Shown here: positions 2,889-39,668 of the stretch, piece by piece
Layout: every line of letters begins with the position of its first letter
How positions within the stretch are numbered: the stretch's first letter is position 1
NCBI GenBank assembly: GCA_040757115.1
Contig: JBFLYA010000007.1
Span: 1-40,160 of the forward strand
Length of the DNA stretch: 40,160 bases
Direction: 5' to 3'
Source of the DNA: a bacterium
Lineage (GTDB): Bacteria > UBA9089 > CG2-30-40-21 > SBAY01
Program-made: the position numbers and the translations under genes
The notes under the pieces: model-generated
The model's database searches: none
The model's input: only the letters and a program-made list of their open reading frames with translations
Told to the model about the DNA's origin: nothing

Positions 2889-3788
2889 ATGAACAAAAAA
2901 TGCTTTCTTGTGGTTTTTCTATTGATTTCAGGCATAGTTTCCCAATCTTTAGCCAATCCCATTCTTGGAGAATATTCCGCTGTTTTAGCACCGGGGAAAT
3001 ATGAATTAAAGAAAAACTTGCTCTGGATGGTAAGTGACGAAGTGTGGAATAATGAGGGAGAAAGGCAGGATTACGAGTCCGAGGAAGAGGTTAAAGAAGG
3101 ATTTGAAGCAACGGAATTTGAAATTCAATTAGAACTTTATCGAGGGATAGTAGAAAATTTACAATTGGGTCTGGTTTTCCCTTTTTTGTTTTTAAATGAA
3201 ACCCCTTATTTAGGTGCTCAAGAAAAATCTGGTCATGGTAGAGGAGACCTCGAATTAAAAGCAAAATATAATCTTATTTCAGGTAAAATTGACCTACCAT
3301 CTATTTCCGGGTTATTAATCATAAAACTTCCTACCGGCAAAGAGGCAAAAAAAGGCTCAACTGACTTACCAACTTCATCCGGAGGAACAGATTTGACTTT
3401 TATGGGAATATTGACCAAAAATTTAGAGCCTTTTACCACACACTTAAATCTCGCTTATACTATCACCGGCAAAGGCAAAAATGAAGAAGGAATTGAAATT
3501 AACCCCGGCAATGTATTCGCCTACGATGTAACTTTAGACTATCCAGCGGGAAAGAGAACAACCATTGTTACTGAGCTAATGGGTGAATTTAAAAGCGAAG
3601 ATAGAAATAGCCAGAAAAAGAAAATTAACGCCTCCAAATCTTCATTAATGACGCTTTTATTAGGTCTTCAATACGAAACTGTTGAATTGCATAATACTAC
3701 CCTACAAGCGGCAATTGCTTACCGTCTTACTGGTAAAAATGAAAAAACTGGAATAACACCTCTTTTAGGTTTTATTCGTGAGTTTTAA
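2889..3788 (+). CDS. Outer-membrane beta-barrel protein (MetA-pathway/transporter-like family)
   Basis: Signal peptide, GRGDLELKAKY, LPTG, THLNLAYT...NPGN motifs, terminal Phe. Confidence 0.65.
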   Translation: MNKKCFLVVFLLISGIVSQSLANPILGEYSAVLAPGKYELKKNLLWMVSDEVWNNEGERQDYESEEEVKEGFEATEFEIQLELYRGIVENLQLGLVFPFLFLNETPYLGAQEKSGHGRGDLELKAKYNLISGKIDLPSISGLLIIKLPTGKEAKKGSTDLPTSSGGTDLTFMGILTKNLEPFTTHLNLAYTITGKGKNEEGIEINPGNVFAYDVTLDYPAGKRTTIVTELMGEFKSEDRNSQKKKINASKSSLMTLLLGLQYETVELHNTTLQAAIAYRLTGKNEKTGITPLLGFIREF

Positions 3789-3953
3789 TAAGCGTTCAGC
3801 CACAGAGGTACAGAATTCACAGAGAATTAAGGAAATTAGCCAGAAGCGAGGCTAAAGCCTCGCACTACAAATCTTTTTGCATTTGTGTTCATTCGTGGTT
3901 ATATATTTCCTCTGTGTTCTCTGTGACTCTGTGGCTATATCCTGAACGGTTAC
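3789..3953. mobile_element. GTAA-family MITE containing a REP-like hairpin
   Basis: TAAGCGTTCAGCC ... CCTGAACGGTTAC; flanks GAGTTTTA/GAGTTTTT; reverse-complement relative of 35879-36218. Confidence 0.7.
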
Positions 3954-6555: not shown

Positions 6556-8854
6556 TAATAAGCACTTAGAAGAATTATTGAAGCCGATTTTTATAGATGG
6601 ACTACTTGAAACCATCAATTGGTATAAATCAGATGCTCCCTATTATCTCAGGTCTATATTTAATCAGGTAGGTTTTAAAGATAGGGATGGGAAAGAGGCT
6701 ATTTACTATACCTCACCCTCAAGTCTTTCATCTCAGATTGTATATCCAAAGTCAGACAAAAATGGGCTAAAAAGGATTAAAAAAGAGGTGTTGGAGCAGA
6801 TAAATGAGTACTATAAAGCCTTTTCAAAAGACTACCTTGATTCTCTAAATTCTAACCAGCTACTTTTCCTGCTTGAGAAATTTGGTGGAAATGTGCCTAT
6901 AAAGGAATCAGAAGTTACATCAATCTTTGATGTATATAAAATTAAAGCAGCAAAAGCGGTTATCCAATTAAATAGAGAAAATTTAGAACATCACGATAAT
7001 CTGCTTATAAATATTGACCTATCAGGAATCCAGAGATTTATCTATAATATCTCTTCCTCTGGAGCATCAAAAAATCTCCGCTCCCGTTCCTTCTTTGTTG
7101 AACTTTTGTCTAATCATCTTATCTATAAAGTGTTAAATGCTTTAAACCTCCATTATGTAAATGTCATTATGAATGGTGGAGGCAATATTTACATACTTTC
7201 AGGTTGCCCCAAGGAAGATGAAGACCCTCTCATTAACATCGCCTATAGCCTTAACCGGTGGTTTCTAAGAGAATTCAATGGAAAACTTTATGCTGCCTTT
7301 AGCTATGTTAAATGTTCGGATGAGGAACTCAAGATGAATCTTCCAGGCTTATTAAGAGAAATTTCAAACCAGGCATTTACTAAAAAACGCATGAAGTTCA
7401 AAGCCATTATAGAAAGGGGTGAATTCCCTTTTGTGGAAGAAACTGACCCAAATTCTCAAAGTTGTGAAATTTGCTATAGAGATGATTCCACAATCAGAGT
7501 TCAGGAGGAGGAAGTCAGATGTTCCTTGTGCCAAAGACTTATTGAACTTGGTAATCAGATACCAAAAGCAAAATTTATCTACAGTTACAACAAGGATGAT
7601 AGAGAATGTCTACCGATAGAGGCCTCATATTATCTTTTGTCTGAAGTGAAAAAAGACTTAAGGTGTTTATGGGTTGTTTTTGAAGATAGAGAGGATTTTA
7701 TAGAAGACATTGAAGACTCTGCTACATATATATTTGTAAAGACATATATCACAAAGATTGGTGATTTGGATGAAACTGTGCTCAGAAACAAAGAGACAGA
7801 ATCAATGGTAAAAGAAGATATTGCCCCTCTTGAAGATATTGCTGAAAGTTCAAAAGGTGCGAAACTCATTGGAGCTTTAAGAATGGATGCAGACAATATA
7901 GGTAAAATTCTGCATTCCGGTTTTTACGAAGGTGCAAATCTTGAGCTCCTATCATCTCTTTCAAGAAATATGAATTATTTCTTTAAATTATATCTGGAAT
8001 CGTTATGTAAGGGAACAGAATCCCTTTCTACCAGGAACAACCATCGTTTAAGTGGTCATGTTATATATGCCGGAGGTGACGACCTTTTCATTCTTGGTGC
8101 ATGGGACAAGACTGCCTCTCTTGCAATTGACATTGGAAAAGCCTTTAAAAAATATACCTGCGAAAATATTGATATTGGTCTAAGTGGAGGACTTACACTT
8201 CACAATCCTAAATTTCCTGTAAGCAAGATGGCAGAGACATCAATGAGGGCTTTAAAAACAGCAAAAGAGAACCTTGAACCCTGTTGGATGTGCAGGAAGG
8301 AATGGATTACTTGCCCTCTTTATGAAATAGGTAAGTGCTTAAGAAAGGACTCGTTTGCCCCATTCTTTACCGAATATCTGTTATCTCGTAAAAAGAAATT
8401 TAGCGAAAGGTTTAGAACCCCCAAATATTCCCAAGAACCGCCAAGATTGAAACTTGCCCTCAAATGGGAAAAATATAAGAGAGAAGAAGCGAAGGTGGTT
8501 GATGAGGTTAATGAATATATCTTAAAACCTTTAGATGCATTTAAAAAAGGAAGCAATTTGCTACCACAGGGATTTTTTCATAATACCTTGAATTTGCTGG
8601 AGATATGGTATAATGAAGACCTGCTCTATCTTCCTAAAATTGTATGGGGTCTTGAAAAGGTTAAAAGAGAGTTGAAAAAGCAAAAGATTGAGAGCGAAGA
8701 GGGGAAATCTCTTTATGAACTTTATGAAATGTATCTCCATTTTAATAAAGGGATGTTTTCAACATTGTATATACCCCTTTCTTGGGTTATACTTTTAACC
8801 AGAGGAGGTGATGAAATTGATTACGAGAAAGCCAATGGAGGAAAAACTCTATGA
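6548..8854 (+). CDS. cas10: Type III-A Cas10/Csm1, Palm cyclase intact, HD nuclease absent
   Basis: DLSGIQRFIY, LRSRSF, CEIC/CSLC zinc finger, LRMDADNIG, IYAGGDDLFILG; RBS AAGGAGG; no HD motif at the N-terminus. Confidence 0.95.
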   Translation: MINNKHLEELLKPIFIDGLLETINWYKSDAPYYLRSIFNQVGFKDRDGKEAIYYTSPSSLSSQIVYPKSDKNGLKRIKKEVLEQINEYYKAFSKDYLDSLNSNQLLFLLEKFGGNVPIKESEVTSIFDVYKIKAAKAVIQLNRENLEHHDNLLINIDLSGIQRFIYNISSSGASKNLRSRSFFVELLSNHLIYKVLNALNLHYVNVIMNGGGNIYILSGCPKEDEDPLINIAYSLNRWFLREFNGKLYAAFSYVKCSDEELKMNLPGLLREISNQAFTKKRMKFKAIIERGEFPFVEETDPNSQSCEICYRDDSTIRVQEEEVRCSLCQRLIELGNQIPKAKFIYSYNKDDRECLPIEASYYLLSEVKKDLRCLWVVFEDREDFIEDIEDSATYIFVKTYITKIGDLDETVLRNKETESMVKEDIAPLEDIAESSKGAKLIGALRMDADNIGKILHSGFYEGANLELLSSLSRNMNYFFKLYLESLCKGTESLSTRNNHRLSGHVIYAGGDDLFILGAWDKTASLAIDIGKAFKKYTCENIDIGLSGGLTLHNPKFPVSKMAETSMRALKTAKENLEPCWMCRKEWITCPLYEIGKCLRKDSFAPFFTEYLLSRKKKFSERFRTPKYSQEPPRLKLALKWEKYKREEAKVVDEVNEYILKPLDAFKKGSNLLPQGFFHNTLNLLEIWYNEDLLYLPKIVWGLEKVKRELKKQKIESEEGKSLYELYEMYLHFNKGMFSTLYIPLSWVILLTRGGDEIDYEKANGGKTL

Positions 8855-13090: not shown

Positions 13091-13325
13091 AAAGTGAATA
13101 AGACCTGATGAATAAGGGATTGCGACTCGTAGTAAAAAAGAGAGTCATGTTCTGGATTTGGCTTGATCCGTGCGAATAATAGACCTGATGAATAAGGGAT
13201 TGCGACAATCCAGGAAAGTTAAACAGCCAAAGTCTATTTTTGTGCGAATAATAGACCTGATGAATAAGGGATTGCGACGAAGAAAGCGGGACTCGGGGCT
13301 CGGGGCTCGGGGAAAAAGGAGGAAT

Positions 13326-13905
13326 GTAGTGAGGGTCTTTAGACCCGTCTTTAGTCTTTTACAGGAGGTAAAAAATTGTGTCAGCACCAAGATTAGAAAA
13401 TTTTGATTATATTGGTTATGCTGCTTATTCAATCACAATATGTTGTAATTTTAAACATAACTATTTTGAATCAGATAAAACAGTCCATGAATGTATAAAT
13501 ATATTAAAAGAGATTGCAGAAAAATATCAATTCAAGATTTATTTATACACATTTATGCCCGACCATTTGCACTTATGTGTTATTGGTGATTCTGAAAATG
13601 CAAATTTACAAAAGATGATTAAGATATTTAAACAGAAATGTGGATTCTGGTTTAAAAAAGAATATAATAAACAGTTGTTTCAACAAGGATACTATGACCA
13701 TATTATTAGGAAAGAAGAAGGGATTGAAAATGTAATGAAATATATTGCCAATAATCCAGTAAGAAAAGAACTATGTAAAAATTTTGAAGATTATAGATTT
13801 ACAGGTTCATTTGAGTTTGATGTAAATAAAATATTTATGTAGTTTCCAGTTTAGTTTCTAAAACGGGTCTAAAGACCTCACTACATTTTAAAAGACCCTC
13901 ACTAC
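13326..13905. mobile_element. REP-flanked tyrosine transposase unit (REPtron-like)
   Basis: GTAG-TGAGGGTCTTTAGACCCGT at 13326-13348, inverted copy at 13863-13884 and partial copy at 13891-13905. Confidence 0.8.
13378..13842 (+). CDS. REP-associated tyrosine transposase (RAYT, IS200-like Y1 HUH)
   Basis: YSITIC, FMPDHLHL (HUH), FQQGYYDHIIR, YIANNP. Confidence 0.9.
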   Translation: MSAPRLENFDYIGYAAYSITICCNFKHNYFESDKTVHECINILKEIAEKYQFKIYLYTFMPDHLHLCVIGDSENANLQKMIKIFKQKCGFWFKKEYNKQLFQQGYYDHIIRKEEGIENVMKYIANNPVRKELCKNFEDYRFTGSFEFDVNKIFM

Positions 13906-14146
13906 ATTTTAATAGGTTAGGTTAGTATTTTTAGCCTTGCCGAGCCACTATGTGCAAGGGGTTTTGACCCCTGCGTGCGAATAATAGACCTGATGAATAA
14001 GAGATTGCGACGGCCCGCCGATGGCGGAGTTGAAAGTGAAAGTTGAAAGTGAAAGGAGAGAACGAATGGCAGAGTGAAAGTCAAAAGTGAAAGTGAAATA
14101 CGAGCTATGTTGAGTAAAATGATAGACACATTAGATAAGGAGTTCA

Positions 14147-14895: not shown

Positions 14896-15402
14896 GGGTT
14901 CAGGTAAGATAAAAATAAGGAGAAAGGGAGAAGATGGAGAAGTGGAGAAAAGAAGAGTTAACTGATAGGATTATTAATGCCTGTATTAATGTCCATAAAA
15001 AGTTATGACCTGGTTTTCTGGAGAGCATCTATCACAATGCTTTGAAGGTTGAGTTTGCAAGACAGAACATCATCTTTGAATCAGAAAAAGAAGTCAAGAT
15101 ATTCTATCAAGGTGTTGAGGTTGGGATTCATAGACTTGATCTTTTTGTTGAAGATGAGATTGTGGTAGAGATTAAAACTGTTGAGGAGATAAGTGGGAAG
15201 TATTATAATCAGGTTAGATTATACCTTAGAGCAGTGGATAAAGAAATAGGGTTACTGGTAAATTTCGCAGACTCCAGGATTGATGTCCGAAGGGTGGAGC
15301 AAGAAAAAGTTTGAGCCATTTCTCCAATTCTCCCTTTTCCCCATTTCTCCTTGTTTACACTTCTAATGTATAGCCCTGTAATGTATAGCCCTGAACGGTT
15401 AC
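14892..15402. mobile_element. GTAA-ended element carrying a GxxExxY gene, 8-bp target duplication
   Basis: GTAAGGGTTCAGG ... CCTGAACGGTTAC flanked by GATAGGTG on both sides. Confidence 0.85.
14934..15314 (+). pseudogene. GxxExxY family protein with in-frame TGA
   Basis: ELTDRIINACINVHKKL*PGFLESIYHNAL...RLDLFVEDEIVVEIK...GLLVNF; TGA at 15006-15008 replaces the conserved Gly. Confidence 0.88.
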
Positions 15403-37536: not shown

Positions 37537-38271
37537 TTAATATCCCTCTGATAATCTGTCAATCAGGAGTGTGGGTAAAACTTCTTTTCTCATTAGTTCT
37601 TGTGTTTTTCGGATATCATAAGGAATTTTATGTATCGTGATTTCTTTAGTCTTTGTATCAAATATGCCAAAACTTGCTCTCGGGTCACCGTCTCTTGGTT
37701 GTCCTACTGCTCCAACATTAACGATTAATTTCTCATCAGACAAAATTCTAATTGTATCTGTATCACCAAGTCTAATAGAATAAATTGGGTAATATTCTTT
37801 ATAAACAAATAGGTATGGATGATGGGTATGTCCTACTAATAAAAGATTACTCTTTTTTAATAACCTGAAGTTTTTAGCGGCTTCTTTAATCCCACTAATA
37901 TACTCATCTGTATAATCATTTAAACTGCCATGAACCATAATAAAATCTTTTTCTTCGATGATTTCTGGTAATGAGGCTAAATATTCTTTATTCTCTTTAG
38001 TTAAAGTATCCATAGTCCAGATAATCGCTCTTTGGGCATATTCATTAAACCAGGAGGTATCCTTCCAACCAATGCAGGCTAAATCATGATTACCAACAAC
38101 CACCTTCAATCCTGAAAGATTTCTTATTTCCTGAATGCACTCATTTGGAAGAGGTCCGTAACCAACAATATCTCCCAGACAGATTATTTGGTCAACATCT
38201 TTCAATTCATTAAGGACTACCTTTAAAGCCTCTAAATTACTATGAATATCCGAAATAATTCCATATTTCAT
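37537..38271 (-). CDS. Metallophosphoesterase (calcineurin-like)
   Basis: ISDIHSN, LGDIVGYGP, GNHD, HGS, GHTH, NVGAVGQPRDGDPRAS. Confidence 0.93.
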   Translation of the reverse strand: MKYGIISDIHSNLEALKVVLNELKDVDQIICLGDIVGYGPLPNECIQEIRNLSGLKVVVGNHDLACIGWKDTSWFNEYAQRAIIWTMDTLTKENKEYLASLPEIIEEKDFIMVHGSLNDYTDEYISGIKEAAKNFRLLKKSNLLLVGHTHHPYLFVYKEYYPIYSIRLGDTDTIRILSDEKLIVNVGAVGQPRDGDPRASFGIFDTKTKEITIHKIPYDIRKTQELMRKEVLPTLLIDRLSEGY

Positions 38272-38326
38272 AAAATTATTCCACCACCCGAGCCCCGAGT
38301 CCCGGACCCCGAGCCCCGTTTTCTTC

Positions 38327-38351
38327 GTCGCAATCCCTTATTCATCAGGTC
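38327..38351 (-). CRISPR. Isolated 3' part (25 nt) of the CRISPR repeat
   Basis: Minus strand GACCTGATGAATAAGGGATTGCGAC, identical to the 3' end of the array repeat. Confidence 0.85.
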
Positions 38352-38356
38352 GATTT

Positions 38357-38900
38357 GCAGAGAGCAGAAGGCAGAGAGCAGAGAGCAGAAGGCAGAGAGC
38401 AGAGAGCAGATTATTATTGGCAAAACTTCTCAGGTTGTTTCAACATTCCATTAAGCATCTTTCCAATTTCTTCATAGCCTTGAGTCCAATATTTGTAAAT
38501 CTCCGCATTGATATATTTACAACTTGAAGAAAAATCTATCCATACCTGGGTCTCGCTACCTTCAGCATCAGCATCTGTCAATTTATTAGTGAAGTATTTG
38601 GGGTATCTTCTTTTTCTCCATGCTTCTGCTATAGATGTACAAACAGACCGTGATGAGCGTCGCATTTGGTCAATAAGTGAATACTTTTCTTCCTTAGGGA
38701 AACTTTTTGTTTGTTCAAATATTTCCATTGCTAATTGATATGCTAATTGATATACTTTCAAGTCTTTATAGCTTTCAATTCTCATTATATCATTTTGCTC
38801 CTTCCTTCTGCCCTCTGCCCTCTGCTCTCTGCTCTCTGCCCTCTGCCTTCTGCCCTCTGCCCTCTGCCTTCTGCCCTCTGCTCTCTGCCCTCTGCTCTCT
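38357..38900. repeat. Inverted heptamer arrays (GCAGAGA/GCAGAAG/GCAGAGG) bracketing the four-helix-bundle gene
   Basis: 38357-38410 purine-rich array; 38804-38900 complementary pyrimidine-rich array. Confidence 0.9.
38414..38785 (-). CDS. Four helix bundle protein (23S rRNA IVP-like family)
   Basis: [49 protein letters not shown]. Confidence 0.93.
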
Positions 38901-38907
38901 AAAAAAA

Positions 38908-38927
38908 CAATCCCTTATTCATCAGGT
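38908..38927 (-). CRISPR. Isolated 20-nt core of the CRISPR repeat
   Basis: Minus strand ACCTGATGAATAAGGGATTG, 1 nt after the HEPN gene stop. Confidence 0.75.
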
Positions 38928-38928
38928 A

Positions 38929-39402
38929 TTAGATTCGATACGTCCCCAGTGTTTGCAAGTAATTAGAAAGCGTGGATTTGAATTTTAGAAATATATCTTC
39001 TATGTTTTTAATACCCTCTTGCATCCTATCCCATTCCAATTGAAAACCATATCCGTGATATACAACATGTCTGAATTTGCGAAAAGGTGCAAAGGCTAAA
39101 GATAGAGAGTCATCAAACAAAACTGGTAAAGGGACATAGGAAGGTGCACAAAATCGTTTAAATAAGTCAGTATGCCAGTTACTACCAGTTGGCAATGGAA
39201 TAGAATAAAAGTGACTAATTCGTTTGAGGATATTTTCTATACCTCCATAAAACTGAGCAAGAAAAGCACCCGCAGCGGTTTTTTCACGAACAGTTGGTTC
39301 CCTTTTAGATATATCATCGCGTAAAGATAAAAGTTCTCACAGAATTGACTCAATCAATTCAAGTTCAATGTTGATTTCTTCACGAAGTTCTTCATCTGTC
39401 AT
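38929..39402 (-). pseudogene. HEPN RNase toxin (HepT-like) with premature TGA
   Basis: MTDEELREEINIELELIESIL*ELL...FYGGIENILKRI...WHTDL...FRHVVYHGYG (Rx4H); TGA at 39337-39339; ATGA overlap with the MNT gene. Confidence 0.85.
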
Positions 39403-39668
39403 AGTAAAACTTTCCCTTTTGTTTCAATATACCTTGTAAACCGTGTTGGCGGACTTAATGGAACTATATCCAAAGGTGTTTCTAACTCCTCTTCAAGTTT
39501 TGCCGCCAATTCATAAATCTTCCATCCTGTTACTCCCTCACAAGCCAAATCAATATCTCTCGTCTCTAATGGCATTTCCAGCGCACTGCCAAAAAGAATC
39601 AATCGTGTAGCACCATATATTTTAGCCAAAGAGACTATCTTTTCAATTTGTCCTTGATTTATTGCCAC
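39399..39668 (-). CDS. Minimal nucleotidyltransferase antitoxin (MntA-like)
   Basis: LILFGSA, RDIDLAC, PLDIV; GTG start with AGGAGG RBS; paired with the HEPN gene. Confidence 0.88.
   Translation of the reverse strand: MAINQGQIEKIVSLAKIYGATRLILFGSALEMPLETRDIDLACEGVTGWKIYELAAKLEEELETPLDIVPLSPPTRFTRYIETKGKVLL

Follow-up and report, generated by a model that had tools for sequence, protein, structure and literature searches.

Intervening sequences (IVSs) that bear an open reading frame (ORF) are known in the 23S rRNA genes of Leptospira and Coxiella. The temperate phage PhiAP1.1 has been described to integrate into the repeats of CRISPR arrays in Streptococcus pyogenes (Varble et al., bioRxiv 10.1101/2020.10.09.333658), and the legend of Figure 6B in Altae-Tran et al. 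2023 (PMC10910872) lists the 23S rRNA intervening-sequence protein (23S-IVP) among proteins linked to CRISPR adaptation modules. Two known kinds, i.e. mobile-element insertion into CRISPR repeats and IVS-like cassettes, appear to be joined at the site described here, which is located on contig JBFLYA010000007.1 of GenBank assembly GCA_040757115.1 (this genome is designated G000, and the whole contig of 40,160 nt is referred to as the window). On the minus strand, two copies of the genome's type III CRISPR repeat bracket a 556-nt insert, as the original prediction had observed, and this insert was shown to be a cassette in which a four-helix-bundle (4HB) gene lies between arms of tandem heptamers. 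Our preferred reading, held with moderate confidence, is that this heptamer-armed 4HB cassette split a single CRISPR repeat and left its hairpin core in duplicate, and that such cassettes recurrently colonise arrays of this repeat family in a single orientation.

The components of the split site are given below in the order in which they are read, with R1-R37 denoting positions of the 37-nt CRISPR repeat and a slash marking a junction or cut position.

38908..38937, minus strand: left repeat copy, R4-R33 (30 nt), with the 3' end of the repeat (CGAC) missing
38901..38907, minus strand: T7 run at the left junction (ATTG/TTTTTTT), read from the sequence; this junction recurs in the sister species G001 and twice in genome G021
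38795..38900, minus strand: left heptamer arm (AGAGRGC)n, detected by the program TRF (period 7, 13.4 copies), by a heptamer-array script and as inverted repeats I9-I15
38414..38785, minus strand: 4HB gene encoding a 23S-IVP/bAvd-like protein of 123 aa (PF05635, E 7.4e-32; PF22296, E 1.7e-12)
38357..38410, minus strand: right heptamer arm (CTCTGCT)n, which pairs with the left arm (TRF)
38352..38356, minus strand: AAATC preceding the right repeat copy, read from the sequence
38327..38351, minus strand: right repeat copy, R13-R37 (25 nt), an exact match to the array repeat tail, with the hairpin and the 8-nt ATTGCGAC handle
38287..38326, minus strand: trailer module, GAAGAAAAC followed by (GGGGCTC)n, without an inverted partner downstream

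The left copy (R4-R33) lacks the 3' end of the repeat and the right copy (R13-R37) its 5' part, so that the 20-nt core R14-R33 is present once on each side of the insert. This duplicated core holds a 3-bp hairpin (CCU paired with AGG) and the G/ATTGCGAC site, which is the putative Cas6 cut site. Both elements are therefore retained on both sides, the right copy having the full 8-nt handle and the left copy lacking half of it. The left copy, previously delimited as 20 nt (38908-38927), extends over 30 nt (38937-38908), of which 29 are identical to a repeat variant from a G001 array (GTGCGAATCTAAGACC...), its 20-nt core being an exact match to the repeat. The 21-mer GACCTGATGAATAAGGGATTG, with up to three mismatches allowed, was found six times in the window (13102, 13182, 13254 and 13987 on the plus strand; 38331 and 38908 on the minus strand) and in none of 100 shuffled versions of it. 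The arms of the cassette are 93% complementary over 54 nt, and the predicted RNA fold of the cassette has an energy of -206.4 kcal/mol (z -7.0). A PF05635 gene between inverted tandem-heptamer arms places the insert among the heptamer-armed 4HB (IVS-like) cassettes. Its location is a CRISPR repeat and not a 23S rRNA helix, the Rfam search of the window having returned a single tRNA and no match to the CRISPR repeat. Although the two copies belong to the cas-linked repeat family, their spacing of 556 nt differs from the regular unique spacers of about 30-45 nt of an orphan or mini-array. Promoter and terminator scans gave no signal above that of shuffled sequences.

Metagenomes were scanned with a 19-nt core of the repeat, which yielded at least 118 stretches, 80 of which were taken as loci. 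Four of the 32 singleton loci represented chance matches in the coding sequence of four similar enzyme genes, which we take to be dxr, and were dropped from later counts. At about 16 independent loci, as counted by eye, the repeat abuts a heptamer hairpin, with or without a 4HB gene, and these split-repeat loci carry at least six different arm families. Repeat copies with a cut-off end numbered 55 among the 674 at the metagenome loci. Left copies keep the 5' part of the repeat and break at R29, R30, R31, R33 or R36-37, while right copies are full or start at R11-R15, with a perfect 3' end. Since the scan had been anchored on the core, the junction count was repeated with anchors outside it: with a 5' 14-mer, three of 561 copies were truly cut before R29, and with a 3' 15-mer, none of 577 copies started within R16-R22. 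The segment that is always kept on both sides corresponds to the 3-bp hairpin plus the G/A step located 8 nt before the end of the repeat, the usual cleavage position of Cas6 enzymes in such systems.

Matches to 4HB genes (16 in 12 of the 80 loci) were co-oriented with the repeat in every case, i.e. in the direction of CRISPR RNA (crRNA) transcription, and 14 of the 16 were located no more than 390 nt downstream of a repeat copy. After several of the right copies a normal spacer and repeat follow, indicating that these arrays carry on after the cassette. In a phylogenetic tree the repeat-adjacent 4HB genes were polyphyletic (six label changes, at least two of which are forced by well-supported branches), indicative of several colonisations. 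At locus L139, the same cassette follows one local-type and one foreign-type left repeat, a pattern that points to exchange through repeats. A scan of 185,579 species genomes with the junction pattern GATGAAWARRGGATTGKTTTTT returned 14 stretches, of which the one in G021 is the only real case, the remaining 13 being chance matches that in several instances lie in coding sequence.

Within G000, repeats of this family are confined to few places. The window encodes a type III-A locus (cas6, cas10, csm2-5 and a CARF gene, as identified by Pfam), the Cas10 of which has a GGDD cyclase motif at residue 517 and no HD motif in its first 120 residues. The repeats adjoining this locus form a short array:

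13100..14011, plus strand: mini-array 3' of the CARF gene, consisting of a partial repeat 1, repeats 2 and 3, a 696-nt segment and repeat 4

Full 37-nt repeats start at 13170, 13242 and 13975, and the first array repeat is intact only in its 3' part (13100-13126), in agreement with the original prediction. At the start of the 696-nt segment stands GAAGAAAGC(GGGRCTC)n, and a Y1/RAYT-like transposase gene (13378-13842) is located within the segment. The reported resemblance between the sequence after the right repeat tail at the split site and that after array repeat 3, where a trailer module occupies 13279-13312, was likewise borne out, the two being 24,980 nt apart and pairing as an inverted repeat of 63 nt with 90% complementarity.

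Contig C356 holds another array, with at least 23 repeats, beside Cas1, Cas2 and a fusion of reverse transcriptase (RT), TPR and archaeo-eukaryotic primase (AEP) domains. The end of this array consists, in order, of one full repeat, a cassette made up of GAAGAAAAC(GGGRCTC)n, a 4HB gene, (GAGCCCC)n and ACTTAAC, then R13-R37, then a gene-less version of that cassette and a further R13-R37. A whole-genome search (4.3 Mb) for the repeat core identified three places only, i.e. the C356 array, the window array and the split site, which together hold 31 of the 33 core matches, the remaining two having three mismatches. The module composed of repeat tail, GAAGAAARC and (GGGRCTC)n is present at all three. 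Real spacers of this genome measure 35-43 nt, and none of 23 spacers matched elsewhere in the genome beyond chance.

Some further features of these arrays were recorded. The RT fusion on C356 (659-3523 of locus L183; 954 aa) combines a reverse transcriptase, TPR repeats, a TOTE-type archaeo-eukaryotic primase domain and a Mu Gam-like domain, and lies directly upstream of cas1-cas2 and the 23-repeat array. At 6723-7154 of the same locus, an ATG within the CRISPR repeat (GATGAATAAGGG) is in frame, via the heptamers, with the downstream 4HB gene, generating an ORF of 143 aa; this is probably due to chance, since the other two frames of the repeat carry TGA and TAA. PD-(D/E)XK (PDDEXK_3) gene fragments are found just 3' of both arrays (15042-15314 of the window and 7833-8000 of L183), that on C356 being located between (AATTCAC)n-type arms and thus representing a second small-gene family in CRISPR-adjacent hairpin cassettes.

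Heptamer elements are widespread in this genome, with 547 heptamer arrays, at least 41 (GGGRCTC)n arrays and 26 PF05635 matches. All 22 4HB genes with inspected flanks were found between short-period inverted arms. Among the 18 4HB cassettes of the genome, the two CRISPR-linked ones are the only examples with flanking direct repeats of at least 20 nt that are distinct from the arm. These CRISPR-linked cassettes exhibit duplications of 20-24 nt and lack the terminal inverted repeats of miniature inverted-repeat transposable elements (MITEs), and thus do not have the structure of a MITE or DDE transposon. Other 4HB elements in the genome were read by eye as having GTAACTATTCA terminal inverted repeats and 8-bp duplications. 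For example, a multi-copy 4HB element on C407, C409, C450, C433, C90 and C11 is bounded by terminal inverted repeats, GTAACTATTCACC...GCTGAATAGTTAC, together with what look like 8-bp target duplications (AATAATTC, CTATAAAT and GTGAAATG). Some 4HB cassettes therefore ride in MITE-like transposons. Heptamers also build long-range inverted repeats of 58-111 nt (86-95% complementary) in the window (17661-17911/35927-36150; 3783-3959/35873-36223; 21293-21431/29196-29383), and such dispersed composite repeats, strewn over the window, could drive rearrangements.

In the independent assembly of the sister species G001 (contig C29), this region is present with 97% identity across 2,936 nt, and most differences from G000 within 39450-38201 concern the left arm, where units are swapped and there is an insertion of 28 nt. 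In the CARF-linked array of G001, normal spacers are interleaved with a segment comprising a cas2 remnant and leader, a complete 4HB cassette that closes with R13-R37, a RAYT segment and a 4HB remnant. The array ends with R13-R33/GTTTTTT(AGAGGGC)n, which is the left junction of the window in a different upstream context. The cas2 3' remnant and leader-like sequence are located at about 3400-3800 of locus L031 (G001 contig C761), and the leader-like 60 nt recurs before two G001 repeats and before repeat 4 of the window (13917-13974), which suggests fused or rearranged arrays. The CARF-linked arrays of G000 and G001 have no spacers in common.

In G021, which belongs to another family, a single 2.3-kb contig (C52) carries the cassette type of the window twice in empty form, plus the start of a third copy, with junctions (ATTG/T7 and AATC/GACC) that are the same as those of the window; between the units lie an AAA/DUF4143 gene and a small gene pair that includes DUF2283. 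G007, which is from the same order as G000, has a full 37-nt repeat (GTGAGAAACTGATATTTGATGAAAAAAGGATTGCGAC) of the present CRISPR repeat family between inverted (GCACCAG)n arms, and this repeat-bearing unit in turn lies within a dispersed element that has terminal inverted repeats of its own (ACTCGATGTTCAAGTTTTT...). The element was matched on 21 contigs, 14 of which were examined (L037-L050), and some copies have a second, degenerate repeat upstream; the G007 assembly contains no regular array of this repeat. The repeat hairpin co-varies across G000, G007 and G008, with R16-R27 being C-G or U-A and R17-R26 being U-A or C-G, and cas6 is present in the window as well as in G001, G007 and G008. 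A viral contig search for the repeat gave one match only, a solitary repeat-like 36-mer (...CCCTGATGAATAAGGGATTGAGA) at 2490-2570 of L184, which is flanked by a 21-nt direct duplication, TTATCTTTCTTTATAAATTAA.

The genes neighbouring the split site are as follows.

39399..39668, minus strand: MNT-type (antitoxin-like) nucleotidyltransferase gene, a neighbour outside the cassette (Pfam Polbeta PF18765, E 3.8e-5, under the curated cut-off)
38929..39402, minus strand: HepT (HEPN) gene (Pfam HepT-like_2, E 9e-22, when read through with TGA as tryptophan)
37537..38271, minus strand: metallophosphoesterase gene (PF12850, E 7.5e-24), the host gene adjoining the trailer module

The repeat had been proposed to begin 1 nt past the stop codon of the MNT-HEPN pair. 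Because the left copy extends to 30 nt, the HepT stop in fact lies inside the repeat, together with the final four codons of the gene. A suggested rule that a gene stop is followed by a 3' repeat half was rejected, the repeat itself containing TGA, ATG and TAA and the genes simply abutting it. HepT carries an in-frame TGA at 39339-39337 (codon 22), which is shared with G001, where an additional 1-nt indel is found near 39067; the toxin gene of MNT-HepT thus appears to have been inactivated in the two species alike. The possibility that MNT-HepT constitutes a repeat-bracketed cassette was rejected, there being no repeat upstream of the pair within the contig.

On the other side of the site, the same-family genomes G003 and G005 present VanZ, OMP, rpmB (minus strand), phosphoesterase (plus strand) and DUF3108 (plus strand) as a contiguous block without a repeat. 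In the window, VanZ, OMP and rpmB are located at 2.3-4.2 kb, and phosphoesterase and DUF3108 at 36.8-38.3 kb in inverted orientation, with the cas locus plus some 20 kb of ordinary genes separating the two halves. As rpmB adjoins the phosphoesterase gene without a repeat in the same-family genomes, the repeat module before that gene is genus-specific. Phosphoesterase orthologues in eight relatives have no repeat upstream, and the repeat is therefore not a conserved regulatory device of this gene.

These observations suggest a history in which a CRISPR-Cas island entered between rpmB and the phosphoesterase gene in this genus, bringing the module to the latter. The region would then have been rearranged, probably by inversion between the inverted module copies at 13.25 and 38.3 kb, and undoing that inversion would return the phosphoesterase gene to its ancestral orientation, directly after the array. 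The split site itself is taken to be a relic without immune function, as it has no spacers and its HepT gene is broken. The earlier suggestion of a decayed second array colonised by selfish genes is thus broadly right, in that the site consists of one repeat plus the trailer module of both real arrays' ends, has no spacers and is absent in same-family genomes.

The cassette is proposed to spread by recombination within the repeat core, either through Campbell-like integration of a core-bearing cassette or through exchange between repeats, a route that fits the family-specific junctions and the foreign left repeat. It may be tolerated since the hairpin and cut site remain on each side: Cas6 would cut the cassette RNA from the precursor crRNA (pre-crRNA) and yet supply the 5' handle of the next crRNA. 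Such excision would parallel the RNase III-mediated removal of ORF-bearing IVSs from 23S rRNA. On a broader scale, heptamer-armed 4HB cassettes might be specialists of processed non-coding RNA genes, entering at and duplicating a hairpin (rRNA helices, the Cas6 hairpin), with a host RNase (RNase III or Cas6) excising them from the RNA so that the host RNA keeps working and the cassette is strongly transcribed. We offer this generalisation tentatively, as a doubtful though conceivable extension.

Several results weigh against the interpretation of a split repeat and recurrent colonisation. The automatic cassette tests were much weaker than the reading by eye, from which the count of about 16 loci is derived: period-7/8 arrays abut seven of 630 repeat copies (at six of 76 loci) compared with 13 of 3,800 random positions, an exact 11-mer arm test gave 1/580 versus 7/3,040, and a duplex-energy test gave 12/72 against 5% by construction. 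Many solitary repeat copies are without a cassette (e.g. L095, L102, L104, L108, L125 and L129). The counts of 16 are not independent, because L075/L116 and L066/L111 are near-duplicates, and the clustering of labels on the 4HB tree may reflect sampling. Filled versus empty alleles were sought in pairs of loci sharing spacers, L084/L143 (31 spacers), L075/L116 (3) and L096/L124 (3), none of which differs by a cassette. The G021 contigs may be mis-binned, as they are short and their aligned cassette and repeat pieces are 89-98% identical to those of G000. G000 and G001 have identical repeat copies, yet almost all of the sequence outside the left arm is likewise identical, which renders the identity of the copies uninformative on selection.

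At the site itself, one split repeat is indistinguishable from two neighbouring repeats with a replaced spacer. No recombinase or integrase gene was found in the cassette or beside it, the Y1/RAYT-like gene at 13378-13842 being the sole transposase-like gene of the window. With regard to the proposed inversion, the many other long-range inverted repeats in the window mean that its end-points are not unique, and undoing it leaves the synteny beyond DUF3108 unrestored. Cleavage by Cas6 and by RNase III, as well as read-through expression, are predictions from sequence.

Other explanations of the same features were considered. The repeat tails could be selected Cas6 processing sites that mature or stabilise the 4HB and phosphoesterase mRNAs, i.e. 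host RNA signals, for which the hairpin and putative cut site in both copies, the full handle of the right copy, the cas6 genes in the window and in G001, G007 and G008, and the common orientation of all 16 4HB genes would speak. Such a role is nevertheless unlikely, as phosphoesterase orthologues in G002, G003, G005, G006, G010 and G011 have no upstream repeat or heptamer module, half of the handle is missing from the left copy, and 16 of the 18 4HB cassettes of the genome are without repeats. We attach similarly little weight to the idea that the CRISPR adaptation machinery (Cas1-Cas2, beside the RT-AEP fusion) integrates the cassettes as oversized 'spacers', with staggered attacks that flank the hairpin and duplicate only the core. 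Cas1-type integrases are known makers of long duplications at repeats, the duplication bounds (R13-R15 and R29-R37; R1 and R29 in L139) correspond to a staggered strand-transfer geometry, and the C356 array lies beside Cas1, Cas2 and the RT-TPR-AEP fusion. However, the cassettes are located at the trailer end or mid-array rather than at the leader, none being seen at a first repeat; the same junctions recur in unrelated contexts; the left repeat of foreign type in L139 favours the import of a unit made up of repeat and cassette; and only R14-R33 is duplicated here, as opposed to the leader-proximal duplication of a whole repeat that is the product of Cas1-Cas2.

Quite improbable, in our assessment, is a function of the split repeats with their heptamer hairpins as integron attC-like sites that capture arbitrary small genes ('gene-sized spacers'). 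The three split-repeat units of G021 contig C52 with their interspersed genes, and the defence-type MNT-HepT pair adjoining the unit in the window, fit such capture. Yet no integrase was identified by Pfam among the 37 ORFs of the window (no attC model was searched), MNT-HepT lacks an upstream repeat, 14 of the 16 repeat-adjacent genes are 4HB genes inside their own arms, and the G021 evidence is a single short contig that is possibly mis-binned. The original prediction of repeats as insertion or recombination sites for small cassettes is supported only for one element type, which is heptamer-armed, is empty or carries a 4HB gene, and enters at a reproducible repeat position; it does not extend to general gene capture. 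The right copy followed by GAAGAAAAC(GGGGCUC)n might alternatively act as a crRNA-like guide steering the type III complex to heptamer transcripts, in the manner of CreTA or crRNA-like regulators. This is very unlikely, despite the full 8-nt handle running directly into heptamers, the at least 41 (GGGRCTC)n arrays of the genome, the G007 full repeat followed by CGAC(TGGTGCA)n on 21 contigs, and the mini-arrays with regulatory spacers described by Shmakov et al. (10.1101/2023.03.03.530964). The Cas10 GGDD cyclase motif is kept, so that matching self transcripts would be expected to be harmful; there is no second repeat at spacer distance; and the known regulators, as described in that source, occur within cas loci, mostly of type I. 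The spacing of 556 nt and the distance of 25 kb from the cas genes also differ from those of a crRNA-like mini-array, promoter complementarity being outside this comparison. Finally, a metagenome mis-assembly joining repeat pieces to the locus, which a 462-contig assembly rich in dispersed repeats might invite, is hardly credible given that the G001 assembly has the same region and junctions, and that the same junction types occur on many independent metagenome contigs.

If cassettes indeed recurrently split repeats of this family, oversized 'spacers' and half repeats in its arrays would be the footprints of one element type, which matters for array annotation and spacer counting in metagenomes. 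This would also offer a concrete explanation, in structural terms, for the scoring of 23S-IVP/Avd-like genes as 'CRISPR-associated' in large screens: they would ride in repeat-lodged cassettes and would not necessarily be Cas accessory proteins. The 15-nt hairpin plus cut site defines a testable target that bears on enzyme-less cassette movement and on a possible release from pre-crRNA by Cas6. Should the parallel with rRNA IVSs be true, the old question of their origin would become directly testable, and the specialist strategy outlined above would tie rRNA IVSs and the statistical link between 23S-IVP and CRISPR to a single insertion strategy.

A search of the literature found no description of 4HB/heptamer cassettes inside CRISPR repeats, and the split-repeat geometry appears to be new. 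The crRNA-like regulators and CreTA mini-arrays (10.1101/2023.03.03.530964) and the solitary-repeat RNA anti-CRISPRs (PMC10651486) resemble the present site in having repeats outside regular arrays that Cas proteins might bind or process. Those standalone repeats, as presented in these sources, are separated by spacer-length guides or are found in viruses, whereas the copies described here are 556 nt apart around a gene, chromosomal and 25 kb from cas genes. The Altae-Tran et al. 2023 study (PMC10910872) shares with our findings the statistical link of the 23S-IVP family with CRISPR loci, its figure-legend passages describing neither a mechanism nor repeat splitting. PhiAP1.1 likewise uses a CRISPR repeat as the attachment site of a mobile element, the integration and excision of which can reshuffle spacers, but is reported as a whole prophage with its own integrase that enters a type II-A array and disrupts immunity (10.1101/2020.10.09.333658). 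In contrast, the element described here is a cassette of 0.1-0.6 kb without an integrase, and the arrays carry on with normal spacers. As in the 23S IVSs, a PF05635 gene lies between inverted arms that form a long stem, and the insertion is at the hairpin of a processed non-coding RNA gene, where the function of the host RNA can survive if the insert is excised. The present cassettes differ in that the host gene is a CRISPR repeat, the arms are tandem heptamers, the target core is duplicated, and the RNase proposed to remove them is, putatively, Cas6, with RNase III acting on the arms.

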